Source: Patulibacter sp.
GTDB lineage: Bacteria; Actinomycetota; Thermoleophilia; Solirubrobacterales; Solirubrobacteraceae
Direction of reading: 5' to 3'
Assembly: GCF_030655195.1 (NCBI RefSeq)
Contig: NZ_JAURWA010000009.1
Location: forward strand, 3,850-67,849
Length of the DNA stretch: 64,000 nucleotides
Part shown: in pieces, positions 43,759 to 50,939 of the stretch
Numbering within the stretch: position 1 is the stretch's first letter
Layout: each line of letters starts with the position of its first letter
Program-made: the position numbers and the translations under genes
Notes under the pieces: model-generated
Seen by the model: only the letters and a program-made list of their open reading frames with translations
Database searches by the model: none
What the model was told of the DNA's origin: nothing

Positions 43759-44079
43759 GTGCGGCCAGGTCTCCACATCTCGCGGGTCCTCTCGGCGCTG
43801 GCGGTCCTCGCGGCGCTGGCGCTGGCCGTGCTCGAGGCGCCCCAGGTGGCGCTGCTGCTCGGGCCGGCGTTCCTGCTGCTGCTGATCCTCGTCGTCGGCG
43901 TGTTCCCCGGCGAGGAGGCGATCGCCCGTGCCAGGGCCCGCCGGTCCCGCGCCCGCCGCACCCGGGCGCCCGTCCGGGTCGCGCCCCCCGCACTGCCGGA
44001 CGTGGCTCGTCCGGCCGGCGCCGCGCTCGCGTTCGCGCTGGCGATGCGTCCGCCACCGGCGGCCGCCGTCTGCCGCTGA
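43759..44079 (+). CDS. Small 2-TM upstream ORF ending in ..LAFALAMRPPP.. (leader/arrest-peptide candidate)
   Basis: 106 aa, GC3-rich; GTG 9 nt after TACCGT; C-terminal part of track ORF 42634..44079. Confidence 0.65.
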   Translation: MRPGLHISRVLSALAVLAALALAVLEAPQVALLLGPAFLLLLILVVGVFPGEEAIARARARRSRARRTRAPVRVAPPALPDVARPAGAALAFALAMRPPPAAAVCR

Positions 44080-44414
44080 GCGCGCTCTCGGTCCTGGTGG
44101 ACCGGGCAGCCCACCCGTCGTAGCGACCGGGCCCCCGAGAACGGGGGTCCGTGCCTCCGGCGGCCTCACCGGCGGCAGGGCGCACCCGCGCCCGCAGCAC
44201 GACCCGACCGCCGCTCACGGTCCCTCCCCCACGCCGCCCCTCAGCGGGCGGACGGGCGGGCCCGCGAACACGGCCCCCGACCGACGCCGCCCCTGCGCCG
44301 CGCGGTCGCGCCATCGGTCCGTCGCGCCCCGGAGCCGACGAGGCCCGCCGAGAACGGCGGCCCGTCCCCGACGGGGCTGCGCGAGACCGGGCCCAGCCAT
44401 CCCTTCCGCCGGAC
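44080..44414 (+). promoter_or_regulatory. 335-nt structured leader with repeated AGAA-loop hairpins
   Basis: CCCCCG-AGAA-CGGGGG (44132-44147) and CCGCCG-AGAA-CGGCGG (44345-44360). Confidence 0.4.
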
Positions 44415-45887
44415 ATGACCACCGACACCTCACCCCCACCTCCCGCTCCGCTCACCCTCCCGACCCCAGCAGCACCGCCGGCGCCCACGCCCGGTGCGAG
44501 CCCGCGCCGATCCTCCGCGCGACCGCTCGTCCTGCGCCTGCACTTCTACGCGGGCATCCTCGTCGCCCCGCTCCTGGTGGTCGCCTGCATCACCGGGCTG
44601 CTCTACACGACGATGCCCCAGGTCGAACCGCTCGTCCACCGCAAGGAGCTGCACGTCAGCGCCCCGGCCGGCGCGCAGCGGATCCCCCTGATCGATCAGG
44701 TCCGCGCCGCCCGCGCGGCCTACCCCCAGGGCACCATCTCGTCCGTCGCGCCGTCCGATCGGGCCGACCGCACCACGCGCGTCAACCTCGCGGTGCCCGG
44801 CGTCCGCGAGGGCTACCAGCGCACCGTCTTCGTCGACCCCTACACCGGCCGGATCCAGGGCAACGTCGAGACCCTCGGGCAGTGGCTGCCGGTGCGGGTG
44901 TGGTTCGACGACCTCCACCGCAACCTCCACCTCGGCGACGTCGGCCGGCTCTACAGCGAGACGGCCGCGAGCTGGCTGTGGGTCGTCGTCCTCGGCGGCC
45001 TCTACCTCACCTGGCGCCGCCGCCGCGACGAGCGACGCCGGCGTTCCCCCGCCGCGGGCGCGCCGCCCCGGGTCCTCGCCCGTCTGCGGACGATGCGCTG
45101 GCACCGCACGATCGGGGTCGTCGCCGCGATCGGGTTGCTCGGGCTCTCGGCCACGGGCCTGACGTGGTCGAAGTACGCGGGCGAGAACGTCTCCGAGCTG
45201 CGGTCGACGCTCTCGTGGACGACCCCGACCGTCGACACGGGGACGGGGGCCTCCGACGAGCACGCCGGCCATGCGGGACACGGGGCCGCCGCGACCGGCG
45301 GGCCGGGCGGCGACCAGGAGCTGCAGCGCGTCTCCGCCATCGACGACACCGTCCGGACGGCCCGGACCGCGGGTCTCGTCGACCCCATGGTGATCACGCC
45401 GCCCGCCGCCGAGGGCGGCGGCTGGTCGGTGCAGGAGAACCACCGTCGCTGGCCCGAGCGCCAGGACGCCGTGGCGGTCACCCCACCCGGCACCGCGGTC
45501 ACGGACGTCTCCCGGTTCGACGACTGGCCGATCGGCGCCAAGCTCACGAGCTGGGGCGTCGACGCCCACATGGGGCTGCTGTTCGGTCTCGCCAACCAGC
45601 TCGTCCTCGCGGCGCTGGCGATCGCGCTCCTTTCCCTGATCGTGCTCGGCTACCGGATGTGGTGGCAGCGCCGCCCCAAGCACGCCACCGGCGTGCGACC
45701 CGGCAGGCCGATCCCGCGCGGCGCGTGGCGCCACCTGCCGTGGAAGGTGCTCGTGCCGAGCGTCGTCGTGGTCGCCGCGATCGGCTGGTTCGTCCCGCTG
45801 CTCGGGATCACGCTCGTGGCGTTCCTCGTCCTCGACGCGGTGATCGGCGCGACGCGACGACCCCGTGCGCGGAAGCGCCCGGCATGA
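44415..45887 (+). CDS. PepSY-associated TM helix domain protein (heme-b reductase-like)
   Basis: LRLHFYAG, VFVDPYTG, DLHRNLHLG, RWHRTIG, DAHMG; His-rich DEHAGHAGH. Confidence 0.9.
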   Translation: MTTDTSPPPPAPLTLPTPAAPPAPTPGASPRRSSARPLVLRLHFYAGILVAPLLVVACITGLLYTTMPQVEPLVHRKELHVSAPAGAQRIPLIDQVRAARAAYPQGTISSVAPSDRADRTTRVNLAVPGVREGYQRTVFVDPYTGRIQGNVETLGQWLPVRVWFDDLHRNLHLGDVGRLYSETAASWLWVVVLGGLYLTWRRRRDERRRRSPAAGAPPRVLARLRTMRWHRTIGVVAAIGLLGLSATGLTWSKYAGENVSELRSTLSWTTPTVDTGTGASDEHAGHAGHGAAATGGPGGDQELQRVSAIDDTVRTARTAGLVDPMVITPPAAEGGGWSVQENHRRWPERQDAVAVTPPGTAVTDVSRFDDWPIGAKLTSWGVDAHMGLLFGLANQLVLAALAIALLSLIVLGYRMWWQRRPKHATGVRPGRPIPRGAWRHLPWKVLVPSVVVVAAIGWFVPLLGITLVAFLVLDAVIGATRRPRARKRPA

Positions 45888-45948
45888 GCCGCGACCGCCG
45901 GACCGCCCACCCCTCCCCGCCCGTCTCCCCCGACACCAAGGACCCCCG

Positions 45949-46596
45949 ATGACCCCCCTCACCCGCACCACGAGCACCGCCCTGGCCGTCTCCGCACTCG
46001 CGCTGGGCGCGGTCGGCTGCGGCTCCGACGACCAGAGCTCGAACGTCTCGGCGTCGGGCACCAGCGCGACCACCTCGACGTCCGGCCACAGCGGCCACGA
46101 CATGTCGTCGATGGGCTCCGGCGCGCCCAGCCAGGCCGACCAGCAGGCCGTCGCGTCGTCGATGCGGATGGAGCGGCTGGGCAGCGCGACCGCCGGCGAC
46201 CGCAAGGTCGAGCTGGACGCGTCCGAGCCGGTGACGTTCGGCGTGTACGAGGGCGACCGCCTCGTGCAGCACGCCCCGCGCAAGGGCGAGAACGCCCACG
46301 TGATGCTGACGCTGTCGGACGCCCGGACCGGCGACCGGCTGCCGGACGCCACGATCACGCTGCGGGTCATCGACCAGGCCGGCAAGGTCGTCGCGTCGGG
46401 CCCGCAGTACCCCATGATCGGCATGGGGATGGGCATCCACTACGGCGACAACGTCACCATCCCGAAGGCCGGGAAGTACACCGCGCAGCTCGTGGTCGGG
46501 CCGCCGCGGATCGGCCGGCACGCCGACGTCGAGGGCCGCTGGAACACCACCGTGAAGGCGACCATCCCGTTCACCTGGAAGGGCGCCGCGCGATGA
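45949..46596 (+). CDS. Lipoprotein with P19/Tpd/FtrA-like iron/copper-binding motif
   Basis: Lipobox LGAVGC; GHSGHDMSSMG; HVML, YPMIGMGMGIHYGDNV, GKY, PP.IGRH.D. Confidence 0.75.
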   Translation: MTPLTRTTSTALAVSALALGAVGCGSDDQSSNVSASGTSATTSTSGHSGHDMSSMGSGAPSQADQQAVASSMRMERLGSATAGDRKVELDASEPVTFGVYEGDRLVQHAPRKGENAHVMLTLSDARTGDRLPDATITLRVIDQAGKVVASGPQYPMIGMGMGIHYGDNVTIPKAGKYTAQLVVGPPRIGRHADVEGRWNTTVKATIPFTWKGAAR

Positions 46597-47837
46597 GGCT
46601 CACCCGACGCCGGCTGCTGCTCGGCGGTGCCGCCGCCGGCGCCACCGGCGTCGGGGCGGCCGTGGCCGCGACCGCCGGCGGTCACACCGACCAGCAGCCG
46701 CCGGCCGCCGCGCTGCCCGCACCCGCCACCGGTGAGGTCCGCCAGCACGCCTGGGACACCGCGCTGCACCACGACGAGCACGGCAACGTCCTGCCGCCGC
46801 GGTTCCAGCGCCTCGTGCTCTGCGAGCTCGCCGGAGACCCGACACCGGACCGCGCCCGCGCGGCGGAGGCGGCGCTGCGCCGTCTCGAGCACGCCGTGCC
46901 GGCCGGCCCGGAGGGCGTCCTCCTCACCGTCGCGTGGGGACCCTCCTGGTTCCGGCGCGTCGGGGTGCCGTCGCCGATCCCCGCTGCGAAGGCCCTCAGC
47001 CCGGTCGAGGCGCCGACGATCGACGACCCCGCCGCGATCGTCCACCTCGCCTCCGACGACGAGGCCCTCCTGGACCGCGTCGAGCGGGCGCTGTTCGCCG
47101 GAGGCACGCTCCCCGGCGCCCGCGGCCCCGTCGCCCTGACCGGGCTCCTGCGGGTGCGCACCCGGCGCACCGGGTTCGTCGGAGCCGGCCTCCCGCGCGC
47201 CCACCAGCGCGACACCGTCGGACTGCCGACGGACCGGCCGATCGCCCGGTCCGCCCCGCTCTACATGGGCTTCCAGTCCGGTCTGCGGAAGAACCAGGCC
47301 ACCGAGGACGACGTGACCATCGAGGACGGTCCGTGGGCCGGCGGCACGACGATGCACGTCTCCGCGATCGACCTCACCCTGGACACCTGGTACCACGGCG
47401 TCGACGACGCCGGACGCGTCCGCCGGATGTTCGCCGCCGACCGCGCCCCGCAGGACGTCCGGGACCACCCCACCGGCCTGCCCAACCCCGACCGGGACCT
47501 CGCCGCCGTCGCGAAGCAGCGTGGCGTCGTCGGCCACGCCGAGTCGATGGCCGCCGTCCGCCGCAACGGGCGACCCCGGATCATCCGGCGCGACTTCGAC
47601 AGCCGCGACGGCGACGCCGCACAGGTCCACTTCGTCGCCCTGCAACGGTCGATCGCGGACTTCGAGGTCACCCGCGCGGCGATGAACGCGGCGCGCGCCA
47701 CGAACGAGCAGGCCGGCGTCGGCGCCCAGGTCAACAACGGCATCAACGAGTGGATCACCGTCACCGCCCGGGGCAACTACCTCGTCCCTCCACGCCCGCG
47801 ACGCGTCTGCCCCGGCCTGCCCGGATGGGACGCATGA
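46593..47837 (+). CDS. Tat-exported DyP-like (dimeric alpha/beta barrel) heme protein
   Basis: Tat motif LTRRRLL; YMGFQSG, GVVGHA (proximal His), IIRRDF (distal Arg), HFVALQ, RGNYLVPP. Confidence 0.75.
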   Translation: MRLTRRRLLLGGAAAGATGVGAAVAATAGGHTDQQPPAAALPAPATGEVRQHAWDTALHHDEHGNVLPPRFQRLVLCELAGDPTPDRARAAEAALRRLEHAVPAGPEGVLLTVAWGPSWFRRVGVPSPIPAAKALSPVEAPTIDDPAAIVHLASDDEALLDRVERALFAGGTLPGARGPVALTGLLRVRTRRTGFVGAGLPRAHQRDTVGLPTDRPIARSAPLYMGFQSGLRKNQATEDDVTIEDGPWAGGTTMHVSAIDLTLDTWYHGVDDAGRVRRMFAADRAPQDVRDHPTGLPNPDRDLAAVAKQRGVVGHAESMAAVRRNGRPRIIRRDFDSRDGDAAQVHFVALQRSIADFEVTRAAMNAARATNEQAGVGAQVNNGINEWITVTARGNYLVPPRPRRVCPGLPGWDA

Positions 47838-48379
47838 ACGTCCGGTCGACCCTCGCCCTGGCGCTGGCCACGGCGGCGGCGCTGTTCGTGCCGGCGACCG
47901 CGGGCGCGCACGGCGGGATCATCCTGGCGAGCACCACCGCCGGCCCCTACCGCGTGCAGGTCGCCGGAGCGCCGCTGACGGAACCCGGCAGACCCCCGGC
48001 GATCGACGTGACCGTCTACGTCGCCAACGCCACCTCCGGCAGCCCGGTGTCGGGCGCCAACGTACGGACCACCGTCACCGCGGACGAGCGGACCGTCACC
48101 CCCGACGTCCGCGAGATCGCCGGCGGCTACGAGGCGATCGTCCCGGTCCGCGACGCCTACACCGTCGGACAGCAGACCATCGACGTCCGCGTCGCCGGGC
48201 CGCTGGGGACCGGGCGGGTCACCGTCCGACCGACCGACGACCAGGACACGGCTCCCACCGCGCTGATCGTCGGAAGCGCAGCGCTCCTGAGCCTCCTCGT
48301 CGCCGTCGCGATCCGCGTCCGCCGCCGCCGCGGCGGCGGCGATACCGAGGCCGACGTGTGGCCCGACGCCGCGGCGTGA
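47834..48379 (+). CDS. Exported, C-terminally anchored Ig-like protein with predicted N-terminal His
   Basis: Signal peptide ending AGA then HGG; beta-rich core; TM followed by RVRRRR; ATGA overlap. Confidence 0.75.
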   Translation: MNVRSTLALALATAAALFVPATAGAHGGIILASTTAGPYRVQVAGAPLTEPGRPPAIDVTVYVANATSGSPVSGANVRTTVTADERTVTPDVREIAGGYEAIVPVRDAYTVGQQTIDVRVAGPLGTGRVTVRPTDDQDTAPTALIVGSAALLSLLVAVAIRVRRRRGGGDTEADVWPDAAA

Positions 48380-49040: not shown

Positions 49041-50939
49041 CTACCGGAACGCCACGACGCGGATCTTCTTCACCCGCGTCGTCCGCCGGCCCGGCGCGGT
49101 GTAGGTGACCTCGACGCGCACCTTGACCTGGGTCTCGCCACGACGCCGCTTGCCGTCGAGGTACCGCGCGCCGTACCTCGAGCGCCGGAGGGCGATCTTG
49201 ACCGTGCCGGTGGAGGTGCGGGTCGTCGCGCCGCTCGCGAGAGTCCGGCCGTTCTTCACGTACCGCCGGATCGCGACGGTGTAGCGGCCCGCGGGGGCCC
49301 TCGAGAGGACCACGCTGCTGCGGCGGCCGTCGCGGACGTACCGGGCCAGGCGGGGCTTCAGCAGAAGCCCGCGCGCCGCGAGCGAGAGGCGCTCCGTCGG
49401 GTCGAGGAACGACACCGGCGGGGTCGGCGCGGGAGCCGAGGGCAGTGGCGCGCTCCCCGGCAGCGGCGCGACCGGCGCCGGTGTCGCCGGGGCGCCGGGC
49501 CGGGTGCGACCGAGCGCGTCGTCGACGAGGCGCTCGAGGCCCTCCTGCGTCGGGTCCTGGGAGTACACGTGCCGCAGGGACGTGGAGCCCCCGGCCGGGA
49601 CGTCGCGGACGAAGCGGATCACGAAGCTCGACGGGGACAGGAAGCGCCCGTCGCTGGGCGCGGCGTCGAACGTGAAGGCCCCTTCGGGGCCGGCGCCGAC
49701 GGCACCCGTGTCGCCGGGCGCGCCGAACTGCGGGGCGTGCGCGTAGATCGTCGCCGGGCCGGCGGGGGCCGCCGGGATCGCGTCCCCGGCCGCCGGGGTC
49801 GCGTAGGCCTCGGACGACCACGGCACGCGGAACGCCGGTGGGGCGGTCTGGACGAGGTCGAGCGGACCGGTGACCTGCGACGGCATCACGCCCTGGCTGT
49901 AGCGCAGCTCGACGCGGTGGCCGTCCCCGTCGGCGGACTCGAGGGTGTCGCGGAACGTCGTCTGCCGGCCGGCGTGGTCCTGCACGATGGTCCGGCGGAG
50001 GCGGACGCCGGTCGAGGTGAGCGCGCCGGGGTCCCCGGTGAAGACCACGGGCGCCGTCTCGACGATCGTCAGGTCGCCGGTGACCGGATCGACCGCCTGC
50101 GAGACCACGCTGCTGAACTCGCCGGTCACCGTCTGGAAGAGCGGGAGGGCGGCGCGCCCGTCGACGACCATCCCGGCGTCGGCGAGGTCGACGGCGTCCG
50201 GGACGTCCCGGGCGCTCGTGCGAGCCCGGGACCGCGCGGCGGGGGCGCCGAAGCGCGAGAGCGACGCCGAGCCGTAGAACACGCCGCGCAGGTTCGTGTC
50301 CTCCGCGGTGTAGGAGACCGCCAGCCCGCCGCCGCTCCCGGCACCGCCTCCACCGAGCGAGAACGGGAGGCTCGCGCTGTTGTACTGCGCGACCCCGCCG
50401 GCCTGGCCCTGGCTCGTCTGGGTGAACACGTTCGGCGTGTCGCCGCCCGGCTGGAAGCGGTAGGCGGTGTACTGCCCGGCGAGGATCGGCGGACCCGTGA
50501 AGGCGGCCTGCTGCGCCGGGGTGAGCGCGTCGTCGTTGCCGACGCCCTCGTCCGTGGGGATCGCGCGCAGGGTGCACGGCAGCTGGGGCACCACGACGGT
50601 GGACGAGGAGAACCGACCGTCCGCCACGGGCACCGGCCCCTGAGAGACCTCGACGACCTGGGAGCGCCCGTAGAAGCGGACGTCGCAGACGAGGTCGACG
50701 GTCTCGCCGTCCGCGGCCCCCGGCGCGGTGCCGGTCACCGTGGTGGTGCGCGCCGTCGTGCCGGCGCCGCCGACGTTGACGAAGACCGTGCCCTGCAGCA
50801 CGGTGCCGGGAGCGGGCGAGGTGACCGTCGTCGTGGTGATCTCGGCCGAGGCGACGGCCGGGGCGACGAGGGCGGTGGCGAGGACCGCCGCTGGAACGAG
50901 GAGCCGGGCGCTCGGGCGCCGGCTGCGGAAGTGCTGCAC
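49041..50939 (-). CDS. Secreted surface protein with Pro linker and basic C-terminal domain
   Basis: Signal peptide ending ASA; 632 aa; PGAPATPAPVAP linker; Arg/Lys-rich beta tail. Confidence 0.85.
   Translation of the reverse strand: MQHFRSRRPSARLLVPAAVLATALVAPAVASAEITTTTVTSPAPGTVLQGTVFVNVGGAGTTARTTTVTGTAPGAADGETVDLVCDVRFYGRSQVVEVSQGPVPVADGRFSSSTVVVPQLPCTLRAIPTDEGVGNDDALTPAQQAAFTGPPILAGQYTAYRFQPGGDTPNVFTQTSQGQAGGVAQYNSASLPFSLGGGGAGSGGGLAVSYTAEDTNLRGVFYGSASLSRFGAPAARSRARTSARDVPDAVDLADAGMVVDGRAALPLFQTVTGEFSSVVSQAVDPVTGDLTIVETAPVVFTGDPGALTSTGVRLRRTIVQDHAGRQTTFRDTLESADGDGHRVELRYSQGVMPSQVTGPLDLVQTAPPAFRVPWSSEAYATPAAGDAIPAAPAGPATIYAHAPQFGAPGDTGAVGAGPEGAFTFDAAPSDGRFLSPSSFVIRFVRDVPAGGSTSLRHVYSQDPTQEGLERLVDDALGRTRPGAPATPAPVAPLPGSAPLPSAPAPTPPVSFLDPTERLSLAARGLLLKPRLARYVRDGRRSSVVLSRAPAGRYTVAIRRYVKNGRTLASGATTRTSTGTVKIALRRSRYGARYLDGKRRRGETQVKVRVEVTYTAPGRRTTRVKKIRVVAFR

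Follow-up and report, generated by a model that had tools for sequence, protein, structure and literature searches.

A cassette of five co-oriented genes on the plus strand (43759-48379), located in a 64-kb stretch of Patulibacter sp. DNA (contig NZ_JAURWA010000009.1; the whole stretch is called the window in the following), appears to encode an extracytoplasmic copper redox and chaperone module. We give this reading a probability of about 60%, and the module would probably serve the supply of copper to, or its insertion into, cuproenzymes such as haem-copper oxidases. The genes encode a small protein with two transmembrane (TM) segments (2-TM protein), a PepSY_TM membrane protein, a P19-like lipoprotein, a DyP-like protein of the family DUF7405 with a twin-arginine translocation (Tat) signal, and an exported Ig-like protein whose mature chain starts with His, here called the N-terminal-His protein (Table 1). 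The window has a G+C content of about 75%, the nearest homologues of its proteins are those of Patulibacter (Thermoleophilia), an identical sequence occurs in a groundwater metagenome run, and the G+C content at third codon positions (GC3) is 0.92-0.99 for each cassette gene. A first-pass annotation of this DNA had described four co-oriented genes here; all four are present, but the 2-TM gene at 43759 brings the count to five. ATGA overlaps (46593-46596 and 47834-47837) couple the lipoprotein, DUF7405 and N-terminal-His genes, as that annotation had noticed and as can be read directly in the sequence, and a gap of 61 bp separates the PepSY_TM gene from the lipoprotein gene.

The P19-like/DUF7405 pair and its genomic neighbourhood

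The lipoprotein was recognised by the Pfam model PF10634 (Iron_transport) with 38.1 bits (cut-off 21), the match covering only the C-terminal half of the model. As a single sequence it matched FtrA (8vv5) with an E-value of 1e-5, and a profile of the 33-member family reached FtrA 8vv5 (E 1e-13), FetP (2e-10) and P19 (5e-7), and also HftA and Tp34. The earlier assignment to the P19 family was thus confirmed, and the motifs PM....G.HYG.NV and RHxD, on which attention had been drawn before, are present. The signal sequence ends in LGAVGC, which is followed by the His/Met-rich stretch GHSGHDMSSMG and then by PMIGMGMGIHYGDNV and GRHAD. Read by eye, the lipobox is L-(A/G)-(A/G)-C in the Patulibacter orthologues and AVGC in the window; the N-terminal tails of relatives are likewise His/Met-rich (MxGMxMG).

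Invariant in the 33 sequences are H117, M119, D124, P155-M156, G162, H164-Y-G, R190-H191 and W210. Four of these residues, H117, M156, H164 and H191, align to the VH-LEAD, PM, GPH-YG and RH elements of FtrA/FetP (in the profile alignment to FtrA, fHlMvll lies on VHLEADI and PMisaymGpHYG on PMVAN-DGPHYG), and thereby to what we take to be the copper ligands of P19, His42, Met88, His95 and His132. The Mn/Fe site of P19 is an acidic patch of Glu3, Glu44, Asp46 and Asp92, located about 7 Å from the copper site (PMC9174327). In the lipoprotein family the position of Glu44 is taken by the invariant Met119, that of Asp46 by Leu or Thr and that of Asp92 by Met161 (Met in most members), while Glu3 lies outside the alignable region. 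The predicted ligand set is of the copper type, without the iron site.

A scan for relatives of the DUF7405 gene, with one genome per species, gave 502 stretches, the best 80 of which were surveyed; neighbour genes were called by GC3 and clustered under coverage limits, and the survey comprised 82 loci. The best 80 belong to Thermoleophilia (Patulibacter, Solirubrobacterales and Gaiellales), together with one metagenome-assembled genome (MAG) labelled Bipolaricaulota. A P19-like gene is located directly 5´ of the DUF7405 gene in about 74 of these 80 genomes (tblastn), and the conserved core of the cassette is this translationally coupled P19-like/DUF7405 pair. The proposal of a separate metal module, conserved as a unit and with no Ftr1-type permease in the window or the annotated neighbour families, is supported.

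The genes found close to the pair are mainly those of copper handling and oxidase assembly. SCO1/SenC was present in 49 of the 82 loci, CopC-CopD-YtkA fusions in 10 and Caa3_CtaG in four, and at least one of these was found in 54. The usual order in Solirubrobacterales is a 203-aa membrane protein, a 317-aa membrane protein, P19-like, DUF7405 and SCO1/SenC, the latter being frequently fused with thioredoxin-like domains. Patulibacter sp. NPDC049589, the closest named relative (L004; DUF7405 80% identical), has CopCD in the exact PepSY_TM slot, and four loci (L014-L017) show the order 203-aa membrane protein, P19-like, CopCD, DUF7405 and SCO1. CopC-CopD is encoded divergently to the pair in P. 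minatonensis, a Solirubrobacterales MAG (L003) encodes SCO1 on the 5´ side and HMA and a P-type ATPase on the 3´ side, and the cassette of Patulibacter sp. SYSU D01012 (L087) has CtaG as its direct neighbour. The idea that PepSY_TM replaces Ftr1 could not be upheld, since the slot holds CopC-CopD in close relatives and the 317-aa membrane protein in most Solirubrobacterales. That Ftr1/EfeU is missing does hold for the window, where no membrane open reading frame with paired REXXE motifs was found in the 64 kb, and for the annotated neighbour families: FTR1 was found neither in the Pfam-annotated neighbourhoods nor among the annotated frequent neighbour clusters of the 82 loci, where several frequent clusters have no Pfam match.

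In Solirubrobacterales, two membrane protein families without Pfam match almost always precede the pair, one of about 317 aa (L025:6358-7335 and about 40 other loci) and one of about 203 aa (L025:5479-6099 and about 36 other loci); hhalign revealed no relationship of either to CopCD. Three more unknown families of about 341, 144 and 214 aa accompany the SCO1 genes. The MAG labelled Candidatus Bipolaricaulota (L023) is the sole bacterium outside Thermoleophilia among the best 80 loci; it has the order P19-like, DUF7405, SCO1 (48% identity), which could be due to horizontal transfer or to a binning error.

DUF7405 was also found on 40 plasmid records, nearly all of them haloarchaeal megaplasmids, at 39-45% identity. 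On pHMA155 of Haloarcula marismortui it overlaps the gene for a two-domain protein (Iron_transport and DUF7350), and a heavy-metal ATPase is encoded 5 kb away; the lipoprotein/DyP pairing in haloarchaea to which the first-pass annotation had pointed is therefore real. The haloarchaeal partner carries the same HxM and PM..MG.H signatures. It is a single protein with two P19-like domains (L084:8151-9212) encoded downstream of DUF7405. In Thermoleophilia the P19-like gene precedes DUF7405 instead, and in Patulibacter another protein, remotely P19-like, is encoded behind it. A paper on the copper machinery of Haloferax does not mention the pair.

Table 1. Genes of the cassette and repeated palindrome upstream of the PepSY_TM gene (positions in the window).
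Feature	Position	Strand	Remarks
Small 2-TM protein, 106 aa	43759..44079	+	GTG start; GC3 0.92; first gene of conserved block
Palindrome CC[C/G]CCGAGAACGG[G/C]GG, two copies	44132-44147, 44345-44360	.	Intergenic, 213 bp apart
PepSY_TM membrane protein, 490 aa	44415..45887	+	PF03929, E 1.2e-70; putative haem-b metal reductase
P19/FtrA-family lipoprotein, 215 aa	45949..46596	+	PF10634, E 2e-9; putative copper chaperone
Tat-exported DUF7405 protein, 414 aa, DyP-type fold	46593..47837	+	PF24152, E 5e-101
Exported Ig-like protein, 181 aa, N-terminal His, C-terminal TM anchor	47834..48379	+	Predicted model

The other proteins of the cassette and the upstream region

The Tat protein begins with MRLTRRRLLLGG, and its twin-arginine motif RLTRRRxL is conserved when the homologues are compared by eye. 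DUF7405 is its sole Pfam match: Dyp_perox_N/C gave none, TIGR01412 stayed below threshold (E 0.044; 12.6 bits, cut-off 428), a single-sequence search of the PDB matched nothing, and NCBIfam yielded no usable match for any of the five cassette proteins. A few DUF7405 homologues also match PF20628 (Dyp_perox_C). The AlphaFold model (35 homologues) reached a predicted local distance difference test score (pLDDT) of 78.6 and a predicted template modelling score of 0.81. With this model, Foldseek found about 50 DyP structures in the PDB with probability 1.0 (E 5e-14 to 1e-12, target TM-score 0.54-0.72), among them Streptomyces lividans DtpA and SCO3963. By its predicted fold of two ferredoxin-like domains the protein is a DyP, forming a separate sequence family. 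Fold and Tat signal of the Tat DyP-like protein proposed earlier were therefore recovered, but no DyP sequence model was reached.

H315, R332, R333 and D334 (RRDF motif) are invariant, also in the members from haloarchaea and Streptomyces, which are 40-43% identical; H315 is a candidate for the proximal His and R332/R333 for the distal Arg. After the fourth strand, as placed by motif position, the window protein reads R-T-G-F-V-G197-A-G-L-P, and DyPs have GFxDG. G197 is invariant; the residue after it is Ala or Thr in Thermoleophilia, but haloarchaeal and Streptomyces proteins have Asp or Glu there. By motif position, the predicted equivalent of the distal Asp of GXXDG lacks an acidic residue in the window protein. 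DyP subclasses without the distal Asp exist (PMC9719856). Subclass I1 of the Halobacteria, which has Ala or Ser at the place of the distal Asp (PMC9719856), came into question as the identity of DUF7405, but the haloarchaeal DUF7405 members have Gly-Asp there, so that the identity was not established. A homologue on a plasmid of Streptomyces sp. NBC_00503 (L085:6980-8056, 43% identity) has neither a Tat signal nor a P19-like neighbour. Its gene, part of a dehydrogenase cluster, overlaps one for an NAD(P)H-binding protein, and this homologue possibly represents a cytoplasmic branch of DUF7405. Our literature search found no mention of DUF7405.

The PepSY_TM protein matched PF03929 over the full length of the profile (1-295) with 239 bits (cut-off 28.8), and its ATG start at 44415 is conserved. 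Five His residues (H43, H168, H172, H230 and H385), located in or beside predicted TM segments, are invariant among 25 homologues, which agrees with the conserved His motifs that had been pointed out for this protein. A periplasmic loop, DEHAGHAGHG (window 45240-45290, residues about 280-292), recurs as EHAGHxGHG in homologues of many Actinomycetes and is a candidate metal-binding site apart from the putative haem-ligand His.

PepSY_TM is syntenic with the cassette in L005 (P. americanus), L087 (Patulibacter sp. SYSU D01012) and L092; down to an identity of 62%, the genes, including that of the 2-TM protein, stand in the same order and direction. Among the best 80 loci only P. americanus has PepSY_TM beside the pair, and SYSU D01012 and a metagenome contig from JGI show it as well. 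PepSY_TM was seen in two of the 82 survey loci and two further Patulibacter loci; P. americanus DSM 16676 bears the full PepSY_TM cassette and P. minatonensis DSM 18081 the form with CopCD. Several further Patulibacter-like contigs apparently bear both PepSY_TM and the N-terminal-His gene. Among the loci with the P19-like/DUF7405 pair, PepSY_TM is thus confined to a sub-clade of Patulibacter.

A related arrangement was found in Mycolicibacterium celeriflavum, where a 49%-identical PepSY_TM is followed by PCuAC (PF04314, E 3e-32) and a canonical DyP with overlapping gene boundaries. PCuAC and DyP adjoin PepSY_TM homologues in nine of 84 loci (seven of the 40 loci flanked by 2.5 kb or more on each side). 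These homologues come from Mycolicibacterium and eight metagenome loci and are 40-53% identical; two of the clusters include CopCD and one SCO1, and the order is either PepSY-PCuAC-DyP or (CopCD-)PCuAC-DyP-PepSY. The three-part design of PepSY_TM, chaperone and DyP therefore recurs independently with analogous, non-homologous parts. This recurrence and the synteny kept to 62% identity speak for a functional tie of PepSY_TM to the pair, which we regard as probable.

The signal peptide of the N-terminal-His protein, read by eye, ends in AGA, followed by HGG. This mature His, with which the chain would start according to the first-pass annotation, is invariant in 27 close homologues and near-invariant in 34 distant ones. 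A full-library search with a hidden Markov model revealed a family in which at least 150 cluster representatives share this architecture, and AxA-HGG is nearly invariant across them. In the structural model (pLDDT 86.5) a signal peptide is followed by an Ig-like sandwich, and a TM helix anchors the C-terminus, with RRRR after the anchor. The best PDB folds were Tp34 and HftA, which are of the P19 fold, as weak matches (E 3e-3, TM-score 0.35-0.44), and hhalign to the neighbouring P19-like family gave 83% (E 9e-6, 92 columns), with the P19 His and Met positions replaced. On this profile comparison the protein is a putative remote relative of the P19 fold.

Neither Pfam nor NCBIfam matched the N-terminal-His protein of the window; its distant relatives gave sub-threshold Pfam matches to YtkA (PF13115, five of 34) and FixH (PF05751, two of 34). 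In hhalign, the comparison with the YtkA domain of CopCD reached only 24%. Conserved Asp, Glu and Tyr accompany the N-terminal His. A His at the mature N-terminus is a hallmark of the copper sites of CopC and YcnI, and by analogy the N-terminal His might bind copper. The gene is limited to loci of the Patulibacter clade among the best 80.

In the 2-TM protein a basic stretch is found and, C-terminally, the motif ALAMRPPP, and its gene is kept 5´ of the cassette in L005, L087, L092, L009, L008, L001 and L002. A Pfam search gave zero matches, and hhalign aligned the protein weakly (44%, E 2e-4) with the C-terminal portion of the Solirubrobacterales membrane family of about 203 aa. That family and the 2-TM protein have a C-terminal R(G/P)PP motif in common.

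Both palindrome copies fall within the gap of 335 bp 5´ of PepSY_TM and are the only exact matches within the 64 kb. They may represent a hairpin or an operator. The motif is not kept in P. americanus or SYSU D01012, and in a close related strain the stretch is swapped for 200 other bases; a CsoR-like operator, considered for the CCCCCGAGAACGGGGG palindromes, was dropped because they are not conserved in these two genomes. An IdeR iron box was not found in the window with up to three mismatches. A sigma-70 scan gave no promoter and no credible terminator, but such a scan is uninformative at 75% GC. A 242-nt contig of a sequencing run that is possibly RNA matches 47175-47416 inside DUF7405 with one mismatch, and nothing spanning the gene junctions was found; this match is a weak hint that DUF7405 is transcribed somewhere. 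Just 3´ of the cassette, the minus strand (49041-50939) encodes a secreted protein of 632 aa, which has a signal peptide and matches no Pfam family.

Probable copper supply and alternative explanations

By analogy with characterised proteins, the cassette could work as follows. The PepSY_TM protein would carry electrons across the membrane via two b-haems and, on its outer side, reduce Cu(II) to Cu(I), a role proposed for CrpH. The Met/His-rich lipoprotein would take up the copper and carry it. At the hand-over point the DyP-like protein, a putative haem protein, might adjust the redox state of the copper or remove peroxide, a function suggested for DtpA and, with iron, for EfeB. The N-terminal-His protein might bind Cu(II) at the membrane surface in the manner of CopC and YcnI.

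Several observations weigh against this reading. The neighbourhood of the window cassette contains neither Sco nor CopCD, CtaG or a copper regulator, and in SYSU D01012 a siderophore-type transporter (FecCD/Peripla_BP_2/ABC_tran, L087:1160-5976) is located divergently 5´ of the cassette; it is the sole iron-type neighbour seen. The majority of the PepSY_TM homologues in Actinomycetes have no adjoining copper genes, and most characterised PepSY_TM proteins are ferric-siderophore reductases. The DUF7405 profile matched the PDB weakly (6qzo only, E 0.003, with the His offset by three residues), and the haem-pocket residues were assigned by motif position, with a His-to-Arg spacing of 17-18 residues compared to 15 in 6qzo. 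The copper ligands taken here for P19 are those reportedly described by Chan et al. 2010. That a reductase is encoded together with a putative oxidase is plausible only by analogy with Fre/Fet3. Finally, a 51%-identical PepSY_TM is encoded beside a FUR-family regulator and Zur-like genes in a Nocardioides luteus-like contig (L088, 7001-15437). Further neighbours there are paralogues of the ribosomal proteins L28, S14 and L31, an ArsP_1/DUF1980 pair and CobW. This locus resembles a zinc-starvation neighbourhood of the Zur type, and the PepSY_TM group may not be bound to a single metal.

Iron acquisition, the function put forward in the first-pass annotation, would mean that PepSY_TM reduces Fe(III) or a ferric siderophore, that the P19-like and DyP-like proteins handle and re-oxidise iron in the way of EfeUOB, FtrABCD or FetMP, and that a permease is encoded elsewhere. 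The family names point this way (PF10634 is called 'Fe2+ transport protein', and PepSY_TM includes the ferric reductases FoxB, FsrB, FpvG and HiuB, PMC13038864), as do the siderophore-type transporter of SYSU D01012 and the precedent of EfeB, a Tat DyP in iron uptake (PMC4736821); the Asp, Glu and Tyr of the N-terminal-His protein could, together with its N-terminal His, in principle bind Fe(III). We nevertheless consider this reading unlikely. It fails because carboxylates of the P19 iron site, which define iron binding in P19, are replaced, Met or hydrophobic residues occupying the Glu44, Asp46 and Asp92 positions throughout the lipoprotein subfamily, and because the gene context is of the copper type, the neighbours being overwhelmingly copper and oxidase-assembly genes (SCO1/SenC, CopC-CopD-YtkA, CtaG, Cu-ATPase). 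In addition, neither Ftr1/EfeU, in the window or the annotated neighbour families, nor an IdeR box in the window was found. Copper handling, which the same annotation had given in brackets, is the better-supported reading, with the invariant His and Met of the copper site and the company of copper genes in its favour.

If the metal is copper, the cassette might still serve detoxification or periplasmic buffering, with the P19-like protein sequestering Cu(I) and the DyP-like protein oxidising it to the less toxic Cu(II), like CueO or PcoA. Resistance proteins typically have Met/His-rich sequences, some loci have CopC-CopD, HMA and P-type ATPase genes nearby, and the haloarchaeal pair resides on megaplasmids, in Haloarcula marismortui not far from the heavy-metal ATPase. 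However, the dominant neighbours SCO1/SenC and CtaG are assembly factors and not resistance genes, a PepSY_TM reductase generating Cu(I) would be counter-productive, and the CrpH and DtpA precedents concern supply at low copper, which makes detoxification improbable. It might also be that PepSY_TM is a mere neighbour and that the functional unit is the P19-like/DUF7405 pair, joined by the N-terminal-His protein in the Patulibacter clade. PepSY_TM is indeed missing from most pair-bearing loci, is separated by a gap instead of an overlap, and has homologues that mostly do not lie beside copper genes. The order and orientation kept across Patulibacter lineages together with the 2-TM gene, and the recurrence of PepSY_TM with PCuAC and DyP in the well-flanked loci, argue against a chance neighbourhood, and we regard it as very unlikely.

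The preferred reading, copper redox and carriage for supply, can be extended to a more specific scenario, which we put forward only tentatively. In a branch of the P19 fold, the iron site could have been converted into a further, soft site made of Met, giving a copper-only chaperone. With DUF7405, a haem protein of the DyP fold lacking the distal Asp, this chaperone could form an as yet undescribed unit of two proteins for copper redox and hand-over, shared by Thermoleophilia and haloarchaea; in Patulibacter, a PepSY_TM cupric reductase and the N-terminal-His protein would join the unit and complete a PCuAC-independent route from external Cu(II) to the respiratory oxidases.

If the copper reading is true, the names 'Fe2+ transport protein' (Pfam) and 'iron transporter' (NCBI) mislabel this subfamily in hundreds of genomes, affecting the annotation of metal homeostasis in Thermoleophilia and haloarchaea. 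For DUF7405, a role open to experiment would follow, that of a counterpart of DtpA, which like EfeB is a Tat-exported DyP with a proposed function beside metal chaperones. PepSY_TM beside a chaperone and a DyP would be independent genomic support, from Gram-positive bacteria, for the copper-reductase proposal of 2026, and concrete partner proteins could be named for PepSY_TM biochemistry (P19/DUF7405, and PCuAC/DyP in Actinomycetes).

Comparison with known systems

The iron-linked systems share single components with the cassette. P19/cFtr1, FetMP and FtrABCD belong to the same PF10634 fold family, and the window lipoprotein has their copper-site motifs PM...GxHYGxN and RH. It differs from them in having Met or Leu/Thr at the positions of Glu44, Asp46 and Asp92 and in being a lipoprotein with a His/Met-rich N-terminal tail, and the window is without an Ftr1-type permease, an FtrB cupredoxin and an FtrD polyferredoxin. 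EfeUOB likewise combines an extracytoplasmic metal binder with a Tat-exported DyP-type protein, but the window has no EfeU, its binder is of the P19 fold and not cupredoxin/M75, and its metal is probably copper.

The N-terminal-His protein resembles the group of CopC, YcnI, YtkA (CtaK) and FixH as an exported Ig-like sandwich, and CopC and YcnI in its mature N-terminal His. A C-terminal membrane anchor, which it also has, is a feature of YcnI. Unlike a member of these families, it has no significant match to any of them, and the closest profile is that of the neighbouring P19-like family.

In Corynebacterium diphtheriae, the genes for DyP, PCuAC and CopC are adjacent (PMC13001254). The PepSY_TM-PCuAC-DyP clusters of Mycolicibacterium and other Actinomycetes, of which we found no description in the literature, have the same three-part design as the window and a PepSY_TM protein 40-53% identical to that of the cassette. 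They differ in using PCuAC (PF04314) and a canonical Dyp_perox_N/C protein, and the Ig-like and 2-TM genes were not seen in them.

The sco operon of Streptomyces lividans has the order sco, ecuc, SLI_4212 (CopCD-like) and dtpA; DtpA is required for the copper-dependent maturation of GlxA, the layout has been likened to EfeUOB, and a metal-oxidising role has been suggested (PMC4736821). Both systems are actinobacterial and combine an extracytoplasmic copper-chaperone lipoprotein with a membrane protein and a Tat-exported haem protein of the DyP fold (chaperone and haem being putative in the window), and related loci (L014-L017, L004) add SCO1 and CopCD in an order that parallels the sco operon. 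The window chaperone, however, is of the P19 fold and that of the sco operon is PCuAC/ECuC; the window DyP belongs to DUF7405, without significant sequence match to canonical DyPs and with Gly-Ala in place of the Asp-Gly of GXXDG; and the window has PepSY_TM for CopCD and no nearby Sco. With Sco, PCuAC and CopCD absent from the window, the cassette is not an operon of the Sco/PCuAC/CopCD/DtpA type.

CrpH of Bordetella pertussis, described in 2026, represents a PepSY_TM subfamily that supports haem-copper oxidases; it requires its haem-binding His and, according to a speculation of its authors, may reduce copper in the periplasm (PMC13038864). The window protein is likewise a PepSY_TM protein with invariant His of the candidate haem-ligand type and with a putative link, by gene context only, to copper and not to siderophore genes. 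CrpH comes from a Gram-negative bacterium, where a TonB-dependent copper importer is encoded with it; the partners in the window are P19-like and DUF7405 proteins. In predicted function and in architecture, the cassette resembles the sco operon and CrpH, apparently without being a member of either, and it seems to be a form, so far undescribed, of the operons by which actinobacteria load respiratory enzymes with copper.

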